A DNA stretch of 64,000 nt. Origin: an uncultured archaeon (GTDB taxonomy: Archaea > Asgardarchaeota > Lokiarchaeia > Sigyniarchaeales > SOKP01). The DNA lies in the NCBI GenBank assembly GCA_964447495.1, contig CAYUTF010000001.1, forward strand, positions 64,870 through 128,869, given 5' to 3'. A program made the position numbers and the translations under genes. The notes under the pieces were generated by a model, which was given only the letters and a program-made list of their open reading frames with translations, was not told where the DNA came from and did not search any database. This document shows positions 7,273 through 13,787 of the stretch, one piece after another (position 1 is the first letter of the stretch; each line of letters opens with the position of its first letter).

Positions 7273-8994
7273 TTATATATTGAGTAATGGTTTTAAAACT
7301 GTACTAATTCCTAACACGTTAGAAACTACTGCGGCAAAAAATAATTGTATTATATTAAAGGAGCTTAAAATAGTAAGACTAAAGCTCTTCGTATTTTCAT
7401 ATATTAGGGTATTTTGAATAATTACAACTGAAAAAATCGCATACAAAAATATTACTGATGGAAAAAACAACCATGAAGAGGTTAGTGAAATCAGAAATAT
7501 TTGAATGAAAATTGAGATGGCTATAATCCACAAAGACTTCTTTCTTTCAGTTTTTAAGAAAGTGAGCTGGGGATATAGTATTTTTCTGTAAAAAATTTCG
7601 ATTGAAAAATATATGGGAAATGCGAGTTCAGCAACAAGAATCTGTATAAAATTTGAGGGCCACATAAAAGCAAATGGATATGAGAAAGAAAAGAGTATAT
7701 AAATTCCAATGAAATAAAAGCTCGCAAAAAGAGCAAAAATAACATGCTTTAAGCGAAATTGAAATTTCAATAAAGTTTTAAATTGAAGCCACCCAAATTT
7801 AACCTTATCGAGCTTTAGTTTGTTATAGTAATTTATCATTTTAATTAAAAGATAGATTATAGTAATATTTAACGAAGCATAAAAGATACCAATTAATCCA
7901 AAGATTCTTTCAAATATTTCCCAGTTAAGTAGAAACATACCCGTATAGATTACTATTTTGGCTATTTTATATGATTCATGGATTCGGGGGTGTTTTGGAT
8001 TGTTCTCAGTTGGTGCAGTATCTTGGTCCTCATCTTTATAGGTAAAAAATTGAGCCATGTATGAAGTGAGTAATAACACTATCAAAAAGAGTAAAGCCAT
8101 ACAAACTAACAATACAACATAATTGATTATAAACGTAATATATATTGGACCGTTAATTATTTCTGAGTGGAAAAAATAATTTTCAAACCATTCAATAGAT
8201 TCAATTAAGACAACATCAGAAAAAAGTTGATGCCCACCACCTAATAAAGGCGTTGTTATAGGAATAACAGTACAATTAGTCAATTCTTGGGCCTTAATAG
8301 CATTTTCAGTAAAATTTAGCATCTCATCTTCAACATGCATTATGATTAATAGATTATGAGTATTAGTTTCATTTATTAAATTAACTGGAATATAATCCTC
8401 ATAATATTCATTCTGAATAATACCTAATTGCTGAGGTTTGAAATTTACTAATGGTGCCCAAGCAACTGTTATGTTGAATCGAGGATCGAGTGCTTGATTC
8501 ATGAGCACTACCATCCCTCCCATTGAATGACCGATGAGACCGATCTGAGAGAGATTTACATTCAAATAGAATGAATATGTTTCTAAAGTATCTAATAAAT
8601 CTGAACAGGCTTGTGCTATTGCGGGTCTTTTTGTTACTGGATTAATATCAATTACATTACCACCACTCTCACCATGCCCTTGATAATCAAGTGATGCTAC
8701 ATAAAATCCCCTTTTTGTAAATTCAATGGGAATTCTTAAATCAAAATCTCTCTGACTTCCTATTCCATGACAATAAATCAATAAGGGTCGTTTATCTTGA
8801 AAATCTAATGATTTTGTGGGATAATATAAATTTGCATACAGAAAAGATCCAGAGGATTCAAATTGTATTCGTTCATATCGACTATAACTTTGTAATTTGT
8901 TGACATGGAGATAAGTAAGTGAGATAGCTAAAAAAATGATGAGAATGATAATTCTTTTAAAAAATTTTATGTCTGTAGTGGTTAATTTATCCAT
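7273..8994 (-). CDS. Secreted alpha/beta hydrolase fused to a C-terminal polytopic membrane domain
   Basis: 573 aa. N-terminal signal anchor (IIILIIFLAISLTYL), HG oxyanion motif (YCHGIGS), nucleophile elbow GHSMGG and a late GGGH. About 8 TM helices follow from roughly residue 285. Confidence 0.7.
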   Translation of the reverse strand: MDKLTTTDIKFFKRIIILIIFLAISLTYLHVNKLQSYSRYERIQFESSGSFLYANLYYPTKSLDFQDKRPLLIYCHGIGSQRDFDLRIPIEFTKRGFYVASLDYQGHGESGGNVIDINPVTKRPAIAQACSDLLDTLETYSFYLNVNLSQIGLIGHSMGGMVVLMNQALDPRFNITVAWAPLVNFKPQQLGIIQNEYYEDYIPVNLINETNTHNLLIIMHVEDEMLNFTENAIKAQELTNCTVIPITTPLLGGGHQLFSDVVLIESIEWFENYFFHSEIINGPIYITFIINYVVLLVCMALLFLIVLLLTSYMAQFFTYKDEDQDTAPTENNPKHPRIHESYKIAKIVIYTGMFLLNWEIFERIFGLIGIFYASLNITIIYLLIKMINYYNKLKLDKVKFGWLQFKTLLKFQFRLKHVIFALFASFYFIGIYILFSFSYPFAFMWPSNFIQILVAELAFPIYFSIEIFYRKILYPQLTFLKTERKKSLWIIAISIFIQIFLISLTSSWLFFPSVIFLYAIFSVVIIQNTLIYENTKSFSLTILSSFNIIQLFFAAVVSNVLGISTVLKPLLNI

Positions 8995-9189: not shown

Positions 9190-9873
9190 ATGTCAGATAA
9201 AAATACTTTAAATGTGATTGATGGGACTTTAAGGTCAGTAGAAAAAAACTTCAAAGAATTTATCGAAGTTTTAGAGTCTGCTAAGAATGAATTAATAGCA
9301 TTGGAAAATGATAAAGGGCAATTGAGTCATGACAAAGAATTACTTGAATACGAGAAGGGACAACTTCAAGAAGCAACGAAAATGTTAGAGAAGGAAAAAG
9401 ACAAACTTGAAAGAGATAAAGAATTATTAGAAACGGAAAAATTAAAACTAGAGAAAGAAAAAGAGGAAAAAGAGCAAAAAATTGGCACTATGACTGAAGA
9501 ACAGACACGATTGCTAAAAGAATATGAAAAAGTTAAGGTGGAATTATCAAAATTTGCAAAATTAGCAGAAGAAGCTGAATCACAGGAACTAAATTTTGAC
9601 AAGATACAAGCATTACTTTCAATTTTTCGGGTACTTGTAGAGAAGATTTGGCAAGGTCAGCCTCACTATAAGGTTTTAAAAGTCCTTCATGGTGCAAAGG
9701 AAGTTATGACAAGAGAAGAATTGAAAAATACCACAGGTATTGGTGGAGCTTATATTTTAAGAGCTGTGCAAGAACTAGCAAATGTTAATTTAGTAGAACA
9801 TGATATTGATACTGGAACTGTCACTTTGAGGCAACGATTATATGCGAAGGAAGTATTGGATGATAATATGTAA
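9190..9873 (+). CDS. Coiled-coil protein with C-terminal winged-helix (wHTH) domain
   Basis: 227 aa. Residues about 30-125 are K/E/L-rich heptad-like (LEKEKDKLERDKELLETEKLKLEKEKEEKEQK). The last roughly 62 aa (LHGAKEVMTREELKNTTGIGGAYILRAVQELANVNLVEHD...) look like a MarR/TrmB-like wHTH. Confidence 0.65.
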   Translation: MSDKNTLNVIDGTLRSVEKNFKEFIEVLESAKNELIALENDKGQLSHDKELLEYEKGQLQEATKMLEKEKDKLERDKELLETEKLKLEKEKEEKEQKIGTMTEEQTRLLKEYEKVKVELSKFAKLAEEAESQELNFDKIQALLSIFRVLVEKIWQGQPHYKVLKVLHGAKEVMTREELKNTTGIGGAYILRAVQELANVNLVEHDIDTGTVTLRQRLYAKEVLDDNM

Positions 9874-11709
9874 TTAATAATTTATTAAATATTCACCATC
9901 AACAAATCTTATTTGTTTAGCTCTTATTAATTCTTCTACAAACTCGAGTAATGTAAATTCTAATGTCTTATGATCACTTTCTGAATATAAGATAAGTAAA
10001 TTTTCTATTCTATTATCAGATGGATCAAAATTTTTATGATGAATTATGATATCTGAAATTAAAAATCCATTTTTATCAAGACATTTTTTGGTTAACTCCG
10101 AACTCTTTTGAGATTTTAAAAATTCTTCTATAAGATACTGATGCTCTAATATCCACCCATTGTTTCTTATGGCTGTTGGATTTGAATAATTTTTTGGTTT
10201 AATAAATATACGTCCTTTCTTGTTTATATAACGCTTAAATCCCCATTCCCTACCTCTTGAAACTTCTAAGCGTCTACGCCATGCTCTAGCCTTATCTTTT
10301 GTGATTCTACACAATTCTCCAAGCCGAGAATCACTTAAATTAAATCTTTTATCGTTAACTAAACGGTTTAACCATCCTCTATGCTTGTACAAAGGATTTT
10401 TTTTTGAACAATCTGAATAAGGATCTAAATGTATATCTATGAATGGTGAAAATTGGTTTTGCCTGTATTTAACTATCCAATTTGAATAAAGTTTTTCCCA
10501 ATTAATTTTTTTTATTTCTTCTTTAACATTATTGATATCCTCATAAAAAATCTCTCCTCTAGGCTTTAGGATCTCTTCAATTTTTTTATTGCCTATATGA
10601 GATATATTAAAATCCTTTCTTAGAACATATTTAGCATTTTTAAACATAATTTTGGATAGTTTTATGAGGTCACTAAAACATTTATATAAGCTCTCAAGAG
10701 ATTTATAGTGCTCTTTTTGACTTTCAAAAAGCCATAAGTTTTCTATTCTATTATCTAATTTATTAAAGTTTATATGATGAACTATACAGTCAGTTTTTAG
10801 ATATTTTCCATCAATCATGCAATTTTTAGAGATTTCCAATTGGGGATTTTTTGAAAGATATTCTTCCATTATTACTTGATGTTTTCTCCGTATAAACCTT
10901 CCTTCTCCACGATTAAGAGGGGTAATTTCGGGATGAAAATACTGCTTGGGAGTATAAACGCAAAGGTACCCATGTTTATCAAGCCATTCTTTCCCTGTAT
11001 CCTCCCGTTTAGGTAGTTTATGCTTTTTTGCCCAATATATTATTGTCCCTTTATCTACGTTACATATTTTTGCTATTTGTCTATAGCTTAATTCCTGATC
11101 TTCATAAAGGAATCTTAACCATTCGCTATGCCTATATAATGGATTTTGATCCTTAGAGCATTCTTTCTTTGGATTTAATAACAATCTAGTAATTGGTTCA
11201 GAAGATCTCGCTTGATATTCAATTATCCAATCCGAGGAAATCCTTTCCCATTGAATATTCCTAAGACTTTCTTTTATCTTAATAAATTCTGAATCTTTAT
11301 CATCAACAAGTTGATTTAAATCTTTAAAGTTTAAATTTTGACAAATTCCCGCATCTAAGAATTCACGATAAGCTGAAAAAAGCTCAAAAGCAGAAACCTT
11401 AATTGAAATTTCTGCTGGAGAATTGCCTACTAATAGTAGGCAAGTCTTTGCTTGAAGGAATTTGTCATATTCTTTCTTTTTTGCTATAATAGATGCTTTA
11501 TCTTCATCATTTTCAGTAGGGTTATTGTTTTTAATATTTAGCCTTATAGATTTTAAAAACTCTTCCAACCAATGTTTAATTAAATCTTTATCTTTTTGAG
11601 TAAAAGGTTTTACTTCTTCTATATTGTAAAAGTTTTCGGAAATATCATATAACTTCTTTAAAAACTCAATATATTCCATTTCAATTTTTTTAAAACCAAG
11701 TATGATCAA
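9874..11709 (-). CDS. Tandem (duplicated) HTH + HNH endonuclease protein
   Basis: 611 aa with two homologous modules (aa about 153-335 and 404-580). Each has NPLY(R/K)H..WL, an HTH-like segment and an HNH_3-type motif: HHINFNKLDNRIENLWLFESQKEH and HHKNFDPSDNRIENLLILYSESDH. Confidence 0.7.
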   Translation of the reverse strand: MIILGFKKIEMEYIEFLKKLYDISENFYNIEEVKPFTQKDKDLIKHWLEEFLKSIRLNIKNNNPTENDEDKASIIAKKKEYDKFLQAKTCLLLVGNSPAEISIKVSAFELFSAYREFLDAGICQNLNFKDLNQLVDDKDSEFIKIKESLRNIQWERISSDWIIEYQARSSEPITRLLLNPKKECSKDQNPLYRHSEWLRFLYEDQELSYRQIAKICNVDKGTIIYWAKKHKLPKREDTGKEWLDKHGYLCVYTPKQYFHPEITPLNRGEGRFIRRKHQVIMEEYLSKNPQLEISKNCMIDGKYLKTDCIVHHINFNKLDNRIENLWLFESQKEHYKSLESLYKCFSDLIKLSKIMFKNAKYVLRKDFNISHIGNKKIEEILKPRGEIFYEDINNVKEEIKKINWEKLYSNWIVKYRQNQFSPFIDIHLDPYSDCSKKNPLYKHRGWLNRLVNDKRFNLSDSRLGELCRITKDKARAWRRRLEVSRGREWGFKRYINKKGRIFIKPKNYSNPTAIRNNGWILEHQYLIEEFLKSQKSSELTKKCLDKNGFLISDIIIHHKNFDPSDNRIENLLILYSESDHKTLEFTLLEFVEELIRAKQIRFVDGEYLINY

Positions 11710-11751
11710 CTTATCTCTCTTTTTTAAGGACGTATCAGTACTGATTAATTT

Positions 11752-12159
11752 TTATTGCTTTTTTGTGAGAGATTTAATATAAGCTCTAGATAAAGAATCT
11801 AAATACTTGTGAACCATATCAGCCCCTCTCCCTATCGGAGAACAGTATAACCACTTGTGGAACAGGGATGTATATATCCCAGAACTCGATTCTTTAATCA
11901 AATTTAGCAGATCTATTGGAGGTAAAACTGAAACATCAAATAAACAAGCCTTTACCGATTGAAGGAAATCACCAATAAATTCATCAACAAAAACTAAGTG
12001 AATTTTATGTTCTATACATTTAGGATATTTTCGGATACCGAATAACCCAAATTTCAATGGTTTTAACTTTACTACGGTGAGACATCCATATTCTGGACAA
12101 ACTGCCACTCTATCTCCCTTTAATCCTTTTCGTGTTGCTTGAATAGCCTTATCTATCAT
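11752..12159 (-). CDS. Hypothetical protein (possible Cys/His metal-binding knuckle)
   Basis: 135-aa ORF. Its start overlaps the upstream gene's stop by 4 nt, and it contains CPEYGC...KCIEH. No recognisable family. Confidence 0.5.
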   Translation of the reverse strand: MIDKAIQATRKGLKGDRVAVCPEYGCLTVVKLKPLKFGLFGIRKYPKCIEHKIHLVFVDEFIGDFLQSVKACLFDVSVLPPIDLLNLIKESSSGIYTSLFHKWLYCSPIGRGADMVHKYLDSLSRAYIKSLTKKQ

Positions 12160-12764
12160 TTTCTAACTATCACCTTACTCTTCTTAAGATGAATCTGTTC
12201 TTTGTCTATACCAAGGCATAATCTTGCATATTCTTGGTCTAATTGTTGATAATTCAACTTAATTTGCTTTATAAAACCTGGTATAACCTCATTTATTTTT
12301 TCTTCATCTTGATATAAACGAGTTAATGTATTAAGTACTAATTTTAATAATTGAGGCCTCTCGTGAATTTCTAAACCAGAAAGTATATGCAATATCTGCC
12401 ACAATCTAATTTTATTTCTTAAGAAATCGTTGAATAGTTTAGCTTCTAAACAGCTTGGGGATGATTTCGCCTTTTCTGCAATTAATATAATTTTTAATTT
12501 AATATCTTCATTTTGTCCAATAGTATTTTTTAAATATTTAGAATATTCCTGGATTCGTAAATTCAGTTCCACTTCCCATTTATGAATTGAATTTATAGAA
12601 GAGAGATTTGGAGTTTCATTATAATCACTGCATATTGCACGAATCGTTGCCTTTCTATTATTTAAATAGGTTTGCAAGTGACGAGAAAGCTCAGTTATCC
12701 TATTCTGAGTAATTTCAAGAATTTTATCAAAATAATTGGGTTCTTCCTCATAAAATTGTTCCAT
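12156..12764 (-). CDS. Hypothetical helical protein, first gene of the HNH operon
   Basis: 202-aa ORF, predicted all-helical, with a 4-nt overlap onto the next gene. No recognisable motifs. Confidence 0.5.
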   Translation of the reverse strand: MEQFYEEEPNYFDKILEITQNRITELSRHLQTYLNNRKATIRAICSDYNETPNLSSINSIHKWEVELNLRIQEYSKYLKNTIGQNEDIKLKIILIAEKAKSSPSCLEAKLFNDFLRNKIRLWQILHILSGLEIHERPQLLKLVLNTLTRLYQDEEKINEVIPGFIKQIKLNYQQLDQEYARLCLGIDKEQIHLKKSKVIVRK

Positions 12765-12878
12765 TTTAAATCATCTTGAAAATATTTAATTTAACTTTTT
12801 ATTCTTAAATATTCATTTAGCTACTTATTTATAAATAAAAAATACTTTAATCGTACAGAAAAATACTACAAAAATGCC

Positions 12879-13073
12879 TTGCATGGTGATAAAGAAGAGA
12901 TGACTCGCGATCAAATTAAAAATACGACTGGAATATCTGGAGCAATGGTTTTAAGAGCTGTTCACGAATTGGTCAAGATTGATGTATTAGAATATGACGA
13001 AGAGCGATCTCTTGTTAAGCTGAAAAAGAGATTATTCGATAAAAAAGCATTAGAGAAAAAAGATAAAGAATAA
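12879..13073 (+). pseudogene. Isolated wHTH fragment homologous to the 3' end of the 9190-9873 gene (displaced gene end, or a stand-alone mini-wHTH)
   Basis: TTG-initiated 64 codons. LHGDKEEMTRDQIKNTTGISGAMVLRAVHELVKIDVLEYD... aligns with residues about 166-223 of the 9190 product, with about half of 58 positions identical by eye. There is no coiled-coil part, and an in-frame stop lies at 12792. Confidence 0.5.
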
Positions 13074-13128
13074 ATTATTTTACCTTATTTAGTATAAATT
13101 GTATTTATTGCTTTAATATTACTAATTC

Positions 13129-13521
13129 ATGCAATGTTTTTCCTTTTTCTTTATATGTAACTCCATTATCCTCAATAACAATTTCGAAACTGGAGAGGAA
13201 CTCTATAATATTTGGAAAGCATTGCCATTTAGTCCCAAAGAGACAATGAGTTGGTTTATTCCAATGTTCATGGAAGCGTTAGGAGGGATTTATGACTGGT
13301 CACAACCACATGCGAAACGAGTTCGTCAGATTGCTGCATCTATAAAATCTTATATGCCAAAAGCTTTACCATTTATTATGACGTTCGTGTTTCCTCTTAT
13401 CGCCAAAATTTTTGAGTATGATATTGATAAAATAATGGATCCTCAGAAGTTAATGTCAGCAATACCTAAAATTATAGATTTACTCCCTAAAAAGAAAATA
13501 GTAAAGAAGAATGATTTATGA
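13129..13521 (+). CDS. Hypothetical protein
   Basis: 130-aa ORF whose stop overlaps the ferredoxin start by 4 nt (ATGA). The true start may be an internal Met (MSWFIPMF). Confidence 0.45.
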   Translation: MQCFSFFFICNSIILNNNFETGEELYNIWKALPFSPKETMSWFIPMFMEALGGIYDWSQPHAKRVRQIAASIKSYMPKALPFIMTFVFPLIAKIFEYDIDKIMDPQKLMSAIPKIIDLLPKKKIVKKNDL

Positions 13522-13787
13522 ATATTAGAATTGATGAGTTGATAAAACATATTCCAGGAACTGGTGATTTTATTTCAATTGATAATAATAAATGTAATAA
13601 TTGTGGTAAATGTATTCTTGTTTGCCTGGTAAACTTATGGTATAGAGAAGATAATATGATTTTTATTTCTAAAGATTATAAAGATAAATGCTTAGAATGT
13701 GCTGCTTGCTATCAAGTTTGTGTTGCTGGTGCCATACATTTCCAGTATCCTGCCGGGGGTACAGGGATCATTTATAATAAAGGTTAA
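13518..13787 (+). CDS. 2x[4Fe-4S] ferredoxin-like protein
   Basis: 89 aa with two CxxCxxCxxxC motifs (CNNCGKCILVC and CLECAACYQVC). Confidence 0.8.
   Translation: MNIRIDELIKHIPGTGDFISIDNNKCNNCGKCILVCLVNLWYREDNMIFISKDYKDKCLECAACYQVCVAGAIHFQYPAGGTGIIYNKG

Follow-up and report, generated by a model that had tools for sequence, protein, structure and literature searches.

A probable homing-type HNH endonuclease cassette beside a replaced gene end in a Lokiarchaeon chromosome

Introduction

The window, a 64-kb stretch of DNA from a Lokiarchaeon, carries the 3′ end of a coiled-coil/winged-helix gene twice on the same strand, with endonuclease-coding DNA between the two copies. A sequence-only reading of this locus had proposed an integrated or selfish element bracketed by two copies of the gene end. 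We asked which of the two ends is the resident one, how the DNA between them came to be there, and whether the displaced copy is still a gene.

Results

The locus is made up of the following features, numbered along the window.

9190-9873, plus strand: chimeric coiled-coil/winged-helix gene, 227 aa (resident 5′ part 9190 to ~9460, foreign A-type 3′ part ~9470 to 9873)
9685-9873, plus strand: copy A, the last 62 codons (189 nt) of this gene, duplicating copy B
9874-12159, minus strand: HNH endonuclease gene, 762 codons (Cys-rich N-terminal domain, linker, two tandem HTH+HNH modules)
9874-11709, minus strand: 611-aa ORF, the two tandem HTH+HNH modules of the HNH gene
11752-12159, minus strand: 135-aa ORF, the Cys-rich N-terminal domain of the HNH gene
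12156-12764, minus strand: p202, accessory gene of 202 aa upstream of the HNH gene, overlapping it by 4 nt
12765-12876, no strand: spacer carried by the cassette, upstream of p202; the insertion ends on the right at 12876/12877
12877-13073, plus strand: copy B, the displaced resident 3′ end (ORF 12879-13073, 64 codons, still open)
13074-13189, minus strand: resident spacer and last ~27 codons of a convergent AttH/tocopherol-cyclase-like neighbour, the native downstream context of B
13183-13189, no strand: deletion junction with the 7-nt microhomology TTCGAAA, joining the AttH-like remnant to oxidoreductase codon ~363
13183-13521, plus strand: 3′ remnant (last ~113 codons) of a FAD_binding_3 oxidoreductase gene, inside a spurious 130-aa ORF at 13129-13521

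The repeat itself was as first described, with about half of 58 residues identical from LHG onwards: BLASTP paired residues 166-223 of the 227-aa protein with residues 1-58 of the 64-aa ORF, beginning at L/M-H-G, without gaps and with 29/58 identities (50%), 76% positives and E = 2e-19. Over its length, copy B is 61% identical to copy A in nucleotides and 52% in amino acids, and a tblastn search of all 64 kb of the window turned up no further copy. The 13-nt identity TTTTAAGAGCTGT was also found at 9755-9767 and 12949-12961, as reported. Of the two meanings offered for it, conserved LRAV codons and an att-like core, only the former holds, since the 13-mer lies 73 nt inside copy B, away from the 12876/12877 junction, and occurs in L045 too, where the allele is uninterrupted.

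Related genomes revealed which end is native. In L045/P0083 and L013/P0098 the gene is uninterrupted, of B type, in conserved synteny and free of the cassette; these are the empty sites, continuous with B-type sequence, that an insertion had been expected to have. Relative to L045, nucleotide identity of the window was 89-93% over 9168 to ~9460 and 50-69% over ~9470 to 9873, whereas relative to the distant L004 and L001 it climbed to 84-98% from ~9460 on to 9873. At the protein level, residues 1-50 were 98% identical (49/50) to P0083, and residues 100-227 only 50-57% identical to P0083 yet 87-97% identical to P0004/P0005; the nearest proteins to residues 1-99 were all of B type (0.81-0.88) and those to residues 100-224 all of VLK type (0.88-0.94). 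The resident B type reads ...YRILLTLHG and the foreign A type ...YKVLKVLHG. Similarly, pS against L001 dropped from 0.80 to 0.31 in the 5′ to 3′ direction along the gene, neighbouring genes standing at 0.73-0.75. The flanking genes of the genomes that match copy A so closely share just ~61-66% amino acid identity with those of the window, the hydrolase of L004/L001 being 61% identical to the window's and that of L013 83%.

Copy B, on the other hand, matched the uninterrupted L045/P0083 gene at its 3′ end in 181/197 nt (92%) and 61/64 amino acids and still lies against the 3′ end of the gene that neighbours it natively, which identifies it as the resident end. Homology to L045 begins at 12877, within the Thr165 codon, and positions 516-850 of L045 align with 12877-13211 of the window at 85.8% nucleotide identity. 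The L045 neighbour protein aligns to 13215-13108 (67% amino acid identity, E 6e-12), and residues 314-348 of the L001 AttH protein match the same remnant stretch downstream of B. Copy B is followed by an intact neighbour gene in L007, L011 and L030, L011 displaying the layout of the window with its neighbouring genes intact. Altogether, these comparisons show that the resident gene was of B type, that its codons ~100-165 were overwritten, that its 3′ end from codon 165/166 was pushed downstream intact together with the native neighbour, and that ~3.4 kb (~9470-12876) is foreign, consisting of an A-type 3′ end, which continues the resident 5′ part in frame, and then the cassette. The proposal of an element bringing a replacement 3′ end was thus sound, except that the replaced tract is not limited to the duplicated part and starts ~200 nt earlier, at ~9470. 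GC content, suggested as a further means of telling the insert from its flanks, was 0.28-0.31 in both alike and did not set it apart.

Between the two copies, three minus-strand genes of 202, 135 and 611 aa with a 4-nt overlap had been counted. The ORFs and the overlap are as described; however, the 135-aa and 611-aa ORFs share one frame, the sole break in their single-frame translation being a TAA at 11752-11754, and the homologues P0163, P0165 and P0169 (766-771 aa) are unbroken and carry Gln where the window has TAA. The two ORFs are therefore one HNH gene with a nonsense mutation, and the cassette holds two genes. HNH genes are also split or truncated in L021, L018 and L030. Homing endonuclease genes usually decay after fixation, and the nonsense mutation is consistent with this course. 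The tandem HNH arrangement noted earlier was confirmed by an internal duplication in the 611-aa protein (residues 145-363 versus 395-609, 32% identity, E 7e-37) and by Pfam matches to HNH_3 in two stretches (2.5e-11); against PHROG, the protein matched HNH endonuclease (8e-19). Residues H311, H312, N320, N324 and H334 of the first module and H557, H558, N570 and H580 of the second are invariant across 15 family members, and the catalytic residues are conserved in the two modules alike. The stop codon of the HNH gene directly touches that of the chimeric gene. Neither the window cassette nor about ten related cassettes contained an integrase or transposase.

The accessory protein p202 is predicted to be all-helical and had no Pfam, NCBIfam or PHROG match; its sole PADLOC line was a weak match to ZorA (38 residues, E 0.0019), and its single-sequence AF2 model (pLDDT 44) was unusable. 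Searching for co-occurrence, as had been suggested, placed p202 and the HNH gene together in six other loci, L011, L015, L016, L017, L046 and L047 (p202 at 64-72% amino acid identity), with diverged p202 versions in L007 and L021, the latter cassette lying in another context. Viral contigs yielded no relatives. The spacer upstream of p202 carries an A/T element, TTATTTATAAATAAAAAAT, at about 12825-12843, which is probably a TATA-type promoter and is kept in 7/7 aligned cassettes, with or without copy B.

Replacement of the gene end was not confined to the window. L017 and L128 are an independent second case: their flanks are 98.4% identical in nucleotides, codons 1-147 ~99-100% and codons 148-220 67-80%, and L017 bears a 3,029-nt insertion followed by a native 13-codon remnant identical to L128 at 41/42 nt. 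The proteins P0054/P0051/P0057 and P0102/P0107/P0084 are accordingly 98-99% identical over residues 1-140 and 72-74% over residues 163-224. VLKVLHG occurs in 8/8 cassette-linked intact genes, and 6/6 IL(L/M)(T/S) alleles are cassette-free (Fisher p 0.007, computed over loci that are not phylogenetically independent). Six remnants start within 2-13 nt of the Leu166 codon. Relatives of the HNH gene were found at other gene ends too, beside a displaced, frameshifted ~200 codons of a radical-SAM gene (L019), beside displaced, frameshifted stretches of 40-45 codons of an AAA ATPase gene (L031, L057, L058), and at an M28 peptidase duplicate (L025). With empty sites in relatives, the cassette also present in L021 and HNH relatives at other gene ends, the locus departs from what the sequence-only reading had held to be the mark of a simple local duplication. 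Outside the simple model, and speaking against it, are the inversion of the cassette relative to B in L007, L012 and L030 and the lack of a full-length gene in the ~2 kb of contig upstream in L030. In addition, the nearest known A-type sequences (L001, L004, P0003) have no cassette, and the cassette proteins of the nearest cassette-bearing loci are only 65-78% identical to those of the window; the cassette may have come in a different event from the replacement end.

Just outside the interval first considered, the ORF at 13129-13521 is a truncated gene remnant. AttH-side homology stops at ~13189, and homology to the oxidoreductase (FETGEELYNIW) begins at 13183; the remnant matches the L001 protein of 474 aa over residues 360-472 at 78% identity (E 4e-64). 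Next comes an intact ferredoxin gene of 89 aa (13518-13787), which shares 71% identity with its counterpart in L001. Compared to L001, ~7 kb comprising five and a half genes is absent here, and the missing genes were not found elsewhere in the window.

Discussion

The early view of an integrated or selfish element between two copies of a gene end was essentially right, given the empty sites, the mosaic gene and the resident nature of copy B. We consider it likely that a free-standing, homing-type HNH cassette, made of p202 and the two-module HNH gene, entered this locus by recombination with DNA of a diverged Lokiarchaeon, and we infer that the endonuclease drives its mobility. The enzyme would cut IL(L/M)T-type alleles that lack the cassette, at a place near codons ~148-166 where the winged-helix domain begins. 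On the left, the broken end would then be repaired by homologous invasion of a cassette-bearing VLKV-type allele, at a variable junction (about codon 100 in the window, about codon 148 in L017), and synthesis would proceed through the replacement end and then the cassette. On the right side, illegitimate joining would account for the junctions, which lie at codon 165/166 in the window and, in L017, 13 codons ahead of the stop. Since the host gene stays whole thanks to the replacement end, insertion would cost little, and the VLKV variant of that end would probably resist re-cutting. The nonsense mutation in the endonuclease gene and a ~7-kb microhomology-mediated deletion of neighbouring genes would be later events.

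Most probably, copy B is a remnant of recent origin whose reading frame is still open, and not a working gene. It might instead be retained and expressed as a mini-gene for a 57-64-aa partial winged helix, for instance a cassette regulator or a modulator of the full-length protein, a reading compatible with the insertion history but one that we find unlikely. Transcription would come from the promoter region of the cassette, 40-50 nt before B, where the TATA-like element is conserved; however, the element is equally conserved in cassettes devoid of B (L016, L017) and thus belongs to p202. The ORF is unbroken in the window, L011, L015, L007, L012 and L030, and every copy has a possible start codon (in the window TTG or ATG; in L011 and L015 a new ATG further upstream, the internal Met being gone in L011). 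Against this reading, B begins at residue 166, within helix 1 of the winged helix (158-168 in a low-confidence model), so that it would probably be missing a core element of the fold. The B copies differ from one another by a pN of 0.07-0.19, pS being saturated, and the polarisable changes on the window branch are 6 synonymous to 1 non-synonymous, but most of the divergence between B copies may predate each insertion, when the sequence was part of a full-length gene, so the low dN/dS is no proof of present function. Elsewhere, the remnants are 7-13 codons long (L016, L017) or frameshifted (L019, L031, L057), and in the fungal analogue the native atp6 and cox2 ends are untranscribed (PMC3630166).

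That the HNH cassette is a passenger, the A-type end having come in through gene transfer or homologous recombination of the ordinary kind at a variable hotspot 3′ of the gene, strikes us as quite improbable. The HNH/p202 pair would then have another role, such as a defence or restriction-like function, for which no meaningful PADLOC match was obtained. The region 3′ of the gene is indeed highly variable among relatives, with AttH-like genes in L001 and L004, an aldolase on the P0003 contig, TFIIB in L013 and the ~7-kb deletion in the window; VLKV-type ends without a cassette exist in L001 and L004; and cleavage by the HNH enzyme is a prediction from its sequence. Yet the order of intact gene, HNH gene and displaced end recurs at unrelated radical SAM and AAA ATPase genes, the replaced tract always adjoins the cassette, in two independent host clades, and HNH_3 is a family typical of phage homing endonucleases, the best PHROG matches being HNH endonucleases.

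Integration by a since-lost integrase or transposase is very improbable: integrases classically leave a duplicated target-gene 3′ end when they integrate an element, and a 13-nt identity exists, but that identity is misplaced for an att core, recombinase genes are missing from all cassettes inspected, homologous exchange grades off at the left boundary at different codons in different events (~100 and ~148) with no fixed core, and the right junctions differ between the window and L017. A local tandem duplication, diverged in place and later split by the cassette, would explain direct repeats of old-looking divergence, but is contradicted, and carries hardly any weight with us, since in-place divergence cannot produce the mosaic, with copy A closest to genomes of distant flanks, copy B closest to a close relative's single-copy, uninterrupted gene, and foreign sequence upstream of the duplicated part.

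Comparison with known systems

The cassette-borne replacement of a gene end favoured here has a precedent in the mORFs of fungal mitochondria, mobile endonuclease ORFs that create gene hybrids by bringing a foreign C-terminal end and displacing the native one in atp6 of Allomyces macrogynus and in atp6, atp9, cox2 and nad3 of Glomus sp. (PMC3630166). In both settings an endonuclease ORF interrupts a conserved gene in its 3′ part, and the native C-terminal end is displaced downstream. The native mORF end is about 91-98% identical to that of a close relative, and the duplicated ends about 64-81% identical to each other (PMC3630166); the corresponding figures here are 92% (B versus L045) and 61% (B versus A). 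Unlike the fungal cases, the host is an archaeal chromosome instead of an organelle, the enzyme has two HNH_3 modules and a Cys-rich N-terminal domain and is neither a LAGLIDADG nor a GIY-YIG protein, a second conserved gene (p202) is present, the endonuclease gene lies on the opposite strand, convergent with its target, rather than fused in phase, and the overwritten tract reaches upstream of the duplicated segment.

Like the seg and mob genes of T4-like phages ("intronless homing"), the HNH gene is free-standing beside a conserved gene, with no intron or intein, and shows co-conversion and presence/absence polymorphism. For phage mobE, a predicted HNH endonuclease gene, a double-strand break in endonuclease-less genomes is described as leading to unidirectional gene conversion that mobilises the gene and its flanks (PMC2790892). 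Phage homing takes place during co-infection; here, transfer would be between cellular genomes of diverged Lokiarchaea. To our knowledge, a displaced second copy of the target's end is not a normal trace of free-standing phage endonuclease genes, nor is a tandem two-HNH architecture typical of these phage enzymes.

With integrases that target tRNA genes or gene ends, the locus shares the succession of intact target gene, element and orphaned 3′ copy, but it differs in having no recombinase, no shared junction core, a homologous-recombination gradient at its left boundary and junction positions that vary between events. We found no report in the literature of the same layout in Asgard archaea; a layout known from fungal mitochondria is found here in the chromosome of a Lokiarchaeon, an Asgard archaeon.

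Layout of the repeated gene end and of the genes between its copies

The 3′ end of a gene encoding a 227-aa coiled-coil/winged-helix protein (copy A, 9685-9873) recurs further along as a displaced gene end (copy B, 12877-13073). Alignment of the 227-aa ORF (9190-9873) with the 64-aa ORF of copy B (12879-13073) yielded 29 identities over 58 gapless positions (E 2e-19) from L/M-H-G onward, in agreement with the sequence-only reading, which had put the identity at about half of 58 residues starting at LHG. No third copy was found anywhere in the 64-kb window. The 13-mer TTTTAAGAGCTGT is present in both copies, at 9755-9767 and 12949-12961. Between the copies lie the minus-strand ORFs that the same reading had described:

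12156-12764, minus strand, 202-aa ORF (p202)
11752-12159, minus strand, 135-aa ORF, overlapping the 202-aa ORF by 4 nt
9874-11709, minus strand, 611-aa ORF with a tandem HNH repeat

The three-gene operon proposed for this interval turned out to comprise two genes. The 135-aa and 611-aa ORFs share one frame, their sole separator being a TAA at 11752-11754; homologues of 766-771 aa (P0163, P0165 and P0169) carry Gln at this position and read through, and the copy at the related locus L011 is likewise uninterrupted at the equivalent point. The endonuclease gene of the window (9874-12159) has thus been nonsense-mutated, the premature TAA sitting upstream of both HNH modules. The encoded protein consists of an N-terminal Cys-rich domain, a helical linker and two tandem units, each made of an HTH and an HNH motif. 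The 611-aa part matched Pfam HNH_3 in two stretches (2.5e-11) and a PHROG HNH endonuclease (8e-19), and its residues 145-363 aligned with residues 395-609 (E 7e-37). The His and Asn residues of both modules are invariant among 15 family members, placing the protein in a homing-endonuclease family with its catalytic motif intact. Two HNH modules on one chain could cut both DNA strands. A search of PDB sequences with the HNH-protein profile returned coiled-coil noise only.

The accessory protein p202 had no match in Pfam, NCBIfam or PHROG and a weak one to ZorA in PADLOC (38 residues, E 0.0019); its single-sequence AlphaFold model reached a pLDDT of 44. Searching the cassette proteins against the PADLOC defence models revealed no significant system, the hits being short HTH/HNH-motif matches to mad1 (6.6e-07, 39 residues) and ZorE (2e-04). 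A conserved A/T element, TTATTTATAAATAAAAAAT, precedes the p202 start by 60-80 nt in the window (12825-12843) and at L011, L015-L017, L046 and L047, and is probably the TATA/BRE promoter of the cassette; it is also located ~40-50 nt upstream of copy B. The region around the cassette is AT-rich (GC ~0.28-0.35), and the suggested comparison of GC content with the flanks left the insert unmarked. Homologues of the window proteins are labelled Lokiarchaeota, Promethearchaeota or Hodarchaeota; the source is accordingly a Lokiarchaeon-type Asgard archaeon. An exact database look-up of the 227-aa protein found no record, yet a 100% identical cluster representative exists.

The target gene and its neighbourhood

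The 227-aa protein belongs to a family of at least 586 homologues, the best 120 of which share 65-83% identity. An AlphaFold model built from 17 sequences predicted a confident helix over residues 2-98. The C-terminal elements (H158-168, E172-174, H175-182, H186-197, E202-205 and E210-213) follow the H-S-H-H-S-S order of a winged helix over residues 158-213, at a low pLDDT of ~46-63. Profile matches were weak (MCM5_C, 0.044; Sta1, 0.03), and no hit beyond coiled-coil noise was obtained against PDB sequences.

Upstream synteny is kept in relatives (RFC subunits, AAA protein, ECF component, MFS transporter, hydrolase). At the related loci L001 and L004, a convergent AttH/tocopherol-cyclase-like gene directly follows the target gene, and cassette and fragment are both absent. 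The downstream region differs in almost every relative (L013 10698-11639, the P0003 contig, window 13788 onward), the variants being an AttH-like gene with an oxidoreductase block, an aldolase, TFIIB or a deletion; this variability points to a rearrangement hotspot beside the cassette site. The neighbouring membrane-anchored alpha/beta hydrolase (window 7273-8994; L001 5917-7875) is 573 aa long in the window, 572 aa in L013 and 652 aa in L001 and L004, and tblastn of the window and L001 genes gave two partial matches that overlap, suggesting that the clades differ in the internal length of the gene.

Empty sites in relatives and a mosaic target gene

Comparison with relatives, as had been proposed, revealed presence/absence polymorphism at the same site. 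The site is empty at L045, L013, L128, L129, L001 and L004, and occupied in the window and at L011, L015-L018 and L046-L048. Four full-length proteins end in a B-type C-terminus: P0083 (from L045), P0098 (from L013), P0112 and P0119. P0083 is identical to the window protein at 49 of the first 50 residues and to copy B at 61 of 64.

At the nucleotide level, identity between the window and L045 amounts to 89-93% from 9168 to ~9460 (22/22 upstream), falls to 50-69% over ~9470-9873, which includes copy A, and is 92% (181/197) in copy B. Over ~9470-9873 the window is instead 84-98% identical to the distant loci L004 and L001. How distant they are can be judged from the hydrolase, which is 83% identical to that of the window in L013, where the target gene is uninterrupted and B-type, and 61% identical in L001. 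Along the target gene, pS between the window and L001 drops from 0.80 to 0.31 in the 5′ to 3′ direction, against 0.73-0.75 in neighbouring genes. The switch in identity, the match to P0083 and the fall in pS show that the window gene is a chimera, in which a resident 5′ part reaching to about codon 100 is followed by a foreign A-type 3′ part, the 227-codon frame of the hybrid being continuous.

On the far side of the cassette, homology to L045 resumes at 12877, within the Thr165 codon. Window positions 12877-13211 are 85.8% identical to L045 516-850, a stretch that spans copy B, the intergenic spacer and, on the opposite strand, the last codons of the AttH-like gene; copy B is thus the resident gene end. 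The insertion has a net extent of 3.19 kb (9685-12876), and codons ~100-165 of the resident gene have been overwritten. The earlier suggestion of an insertion that brings its own replacement 3′ end is supported, the A-type end being the foreign one and B the resident one; the corrections concern the number of cassette genes, the 13-mer, the reach of the foreign tract upstream of the repeat and the adjacent deletion.

A deletion adjoins the insertion. Homology on the AttH side stops near 13189, and homology to a 474-aa FAD_binding_3 oxidoreductase starts at 13183, the heptamer TTCGAAA (13183-13189) being common to both sides of the junction; residues 360-472 of the oxidoreductase match the window at 78% identity (E 4e-64). 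Relative to L001, ~7 kb are missing, namely the AttH-like gene, a 135-aa gene, two FAD_binding_4 genes, a CCG-domain gene and the 5′ 360 codons of the oxidoreductase gene, and the missing genes are absent from the rest of the window. The switch of homology at 13183-13189 and the missing ~7 kb identify the 130-aa ORF at 13129-13521 as a 3′ remnant of the oxidoreductase gene (its last ~113 codons). The 135-aa ORF of the cassette was considered as the counterpart of the relatives' 135-aa gene beside AttH and rejected, the sequences being unrelated.

Related cassettes and a second invasion

L011 and L015 have the same layout as the window, and the genes downstream of copy B are intact in L011. At L016, L017, L046 and L047, the cassette lies between the AttH-like gene and a target gene with the A-type motif VLKV before LHG, and the native remnant is only 7-13 codons long. 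Six remnants start 2-13 nt from the Leu166 codon.

L017 and its un-invaded relative L128 document a second event. Their flanks are 98.4% identical at the nucleotide level; in the gene itself, codons 1-147 are ~99-100% identical and codons 148-220 only 67-80%. L017 then carries a 3,029-nt insertion, after which the native last 13 codons are kept (41/42 nt identical to L128). The proteins P0054, P0051 and P0057 are likewise 98-99% identical to P0102, P0107 and P0084 over residues 1-140 and 72-74% identical over residues 163-224. Flanking host sequence has thus been co-converted, declining away from the insertion, as far as ~9470 in the window and codon ~148 in L017.

The motif (K/R/Q)VLKVLHG was found in 8/8 intact genes linked to a cassette, and the alleles with the B-type motif IL(L/M)(T/S)LHG were cassette-free (6/6); VLKV also occurs without a cassette, at L001 and L004. 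This association (Fisher's exact p 0.007, among loci that are phylogenetically non-independent) would fit a cleavage-resistant, cassette-linked allele or cassette loss after fixation. A simple homing model leaves unexplained L007 (931-3754), L012 (3-1594) and L030 (2246-3244), in which the HNH gene is reversed and immediately precedes a B-type remnant; in L030, the HNH gene retains a single module, and two MscS-like membrane genes, rather than the rest of the target gene, occupy the ~2 kb of contig upstream.

Other targets of the HNH family

The HNH protein has ~90 homologues, and every source name given is Promethearchaeota. Several distant homologues lie between diverged, directly repeated copies of genes to which Pfam assigned a family:

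L019, intact 379-aa radical-SAM gene convergent with the HNH gene; ~200 displaced codons, frameshifted, beyond the HNH gene
L031, L057 and L058, 284-aa AAA ATPase; its last 40-45 codons, frameshifted, after the HNH gene
L025 (7992-12655), M28 peptidase; two full-length copies (385/386 aa), 40-56% identical, either side of the HNH gene

At L056 (5921-14612), an HNH relative lies between two FAD-oxidase-like genes that share 79% identity over 502 aa. From the full-length duplicates at L025 and L056, the replacement copy may sometimes be a whole gene. At L021, a p204 gene and a split HNH gene are flanked by a thiolase-like gene on one side and a DUF35/ChsH2-like gene on the other, and the cassette therefore occurs in other contexts. 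The proposed check on co-occurrence elsewhere came out positive for the p202-type gene and the HNH gene, of which the 135-aa and 611-aa ORFs are parts.

Status of the displaced gene end

Copy B is open in six lineages, and the window branch carries 6 synonymous changes against 1 non-synonymous one. The open frame and the mostly synonymous change would fit either recent insertion or retained function. We favour copy B as a young remnant, since its start falls within the first predicted helix of the winged-helix domain (in a low-confidence model) and remnants at other loci have decayed; its retention as a mini-gene seems unlikely. The dN/dS among B copies, considered as a sign of a functional stand-alone gene, was set aside because full-length B-type genes show that the divergence could predate insertion.

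P0123 (84 aa) and P0124 (88 aa) were considered as longer remnants with other breakpoints and rejected, both being 3′ parts of full-length B-type genes. Each of these cassette-free genes has one in-frame stop, TAG for Lys at ~1898 in L126 (P0124) and TGA for Leu at ~1035 in L127 (P0123); pseudogenes and assembly errors are among the possible explanations.

Discussion

Taken together, the comparisons show that the foreign DNA comprised the cassette and a replacement gene end, that the left side entered by homologous exchange at variable positions, that the right junction is non-homologous, with the native end left behind, and that the endonuclease gene decayed later. The enzyme would cut cassette-free alleles somewhere in codons ~148-166, an interval overwritten in both documented events and at whose right edge most remnants start.

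Integrase-mediated insertion does not match the data. No tyrosine or serine recombinase domain turned up among the cassette ORFs of the window, as the sequence-only reading had stated, and related loci hold only p202 and the HNH gene between the same host genes. Nor was an identical att core found at both junctions; the 13-mer earlier considered as att-like, the sole identity of that length, lies 73 nt inside copy B, also occurs in the allele of the empty site, and was rejected as a core. The integrase model fails on both of its defining features. A viral vector is unsupported, as no close relative turned up in the viral contigs searched with the HNH protein and p202.

The empty site and the nucleotide-level mosaic document a selfish endonuclease cassette rewriting part of a highly conserved Lokiarchaeal gene. 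In the donor lineage, the neighbouring genes share only ~61% protein identity with those of the window. Diverged Asgard archaea, for which, to our knowledge, almost no mechanisms of genetic exchange have been described, must therefore exchange DNA with one another and use it in homologous repair. The same HNH family has marked several other genes in this way, and the mechanism may therefore hold for the lineage as a whole. We rate as just short of probable the broader proposal that Lokiarchaea (Promethearchaeota) possess a lineage-specific family of homing cassettes with two HNH modules, which invades several conserved chromosomal genes (coiled-coil/winged-helix, radical-SAM and AAA ATPase) in their 3′ parts, each time with a replacement end, and overwrites host coding sequence across lineages that are ~60% identical elsewhere; in its strongest version, copy B would be kept as a functional mini-protein. 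If true, this would be direct evidence of endonuclease-driven interspecies recombination in Asgard archaea, and a source of chimeric 'core' genes able to mislead phylogenies.

In practical terms, the target family mixes native and transferred 3′ ends, and trees and annotation built on targeted genes need care. A small ORF beside a cassette of this type may be the displaced end of a gene, and a '130-aa gene' may be what a deletion has left. The two-module HNH enzyme, being a single chain, might also serve as a compact tool for site-specific double-strand cutting.

The literature searched contained no description of cassettes of this kind in Asgard archaea; the sole Asgard paper found to mention HNH homing-like proteins deals with PacI-like viral proteins. 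Like the cassette, the free-standing phage endonuclease genes described in PMC2790892 combine co-conversion with the lack of an intron. The closest analogue is provided by the gene hybrids that mobile endonuclease ORFs (mORFs) make in fungal mitochondria (Allomyces atp6; Glomus atp6, atp9, cox2 and nad3), where an in-phase insertion supplies a foreign C-terminal part and displaces the native one (PMC3630166). The window has this hybrid structure, copy B being the end that resembles L045 and copy A the one that resembles L004 and L001. The element is an archaeal, chromosomal, tandem-HNH form of a known type of selfish element, and the principle is already known; what sets it apart is its reach across diverged Asgard lineages and several host genes.
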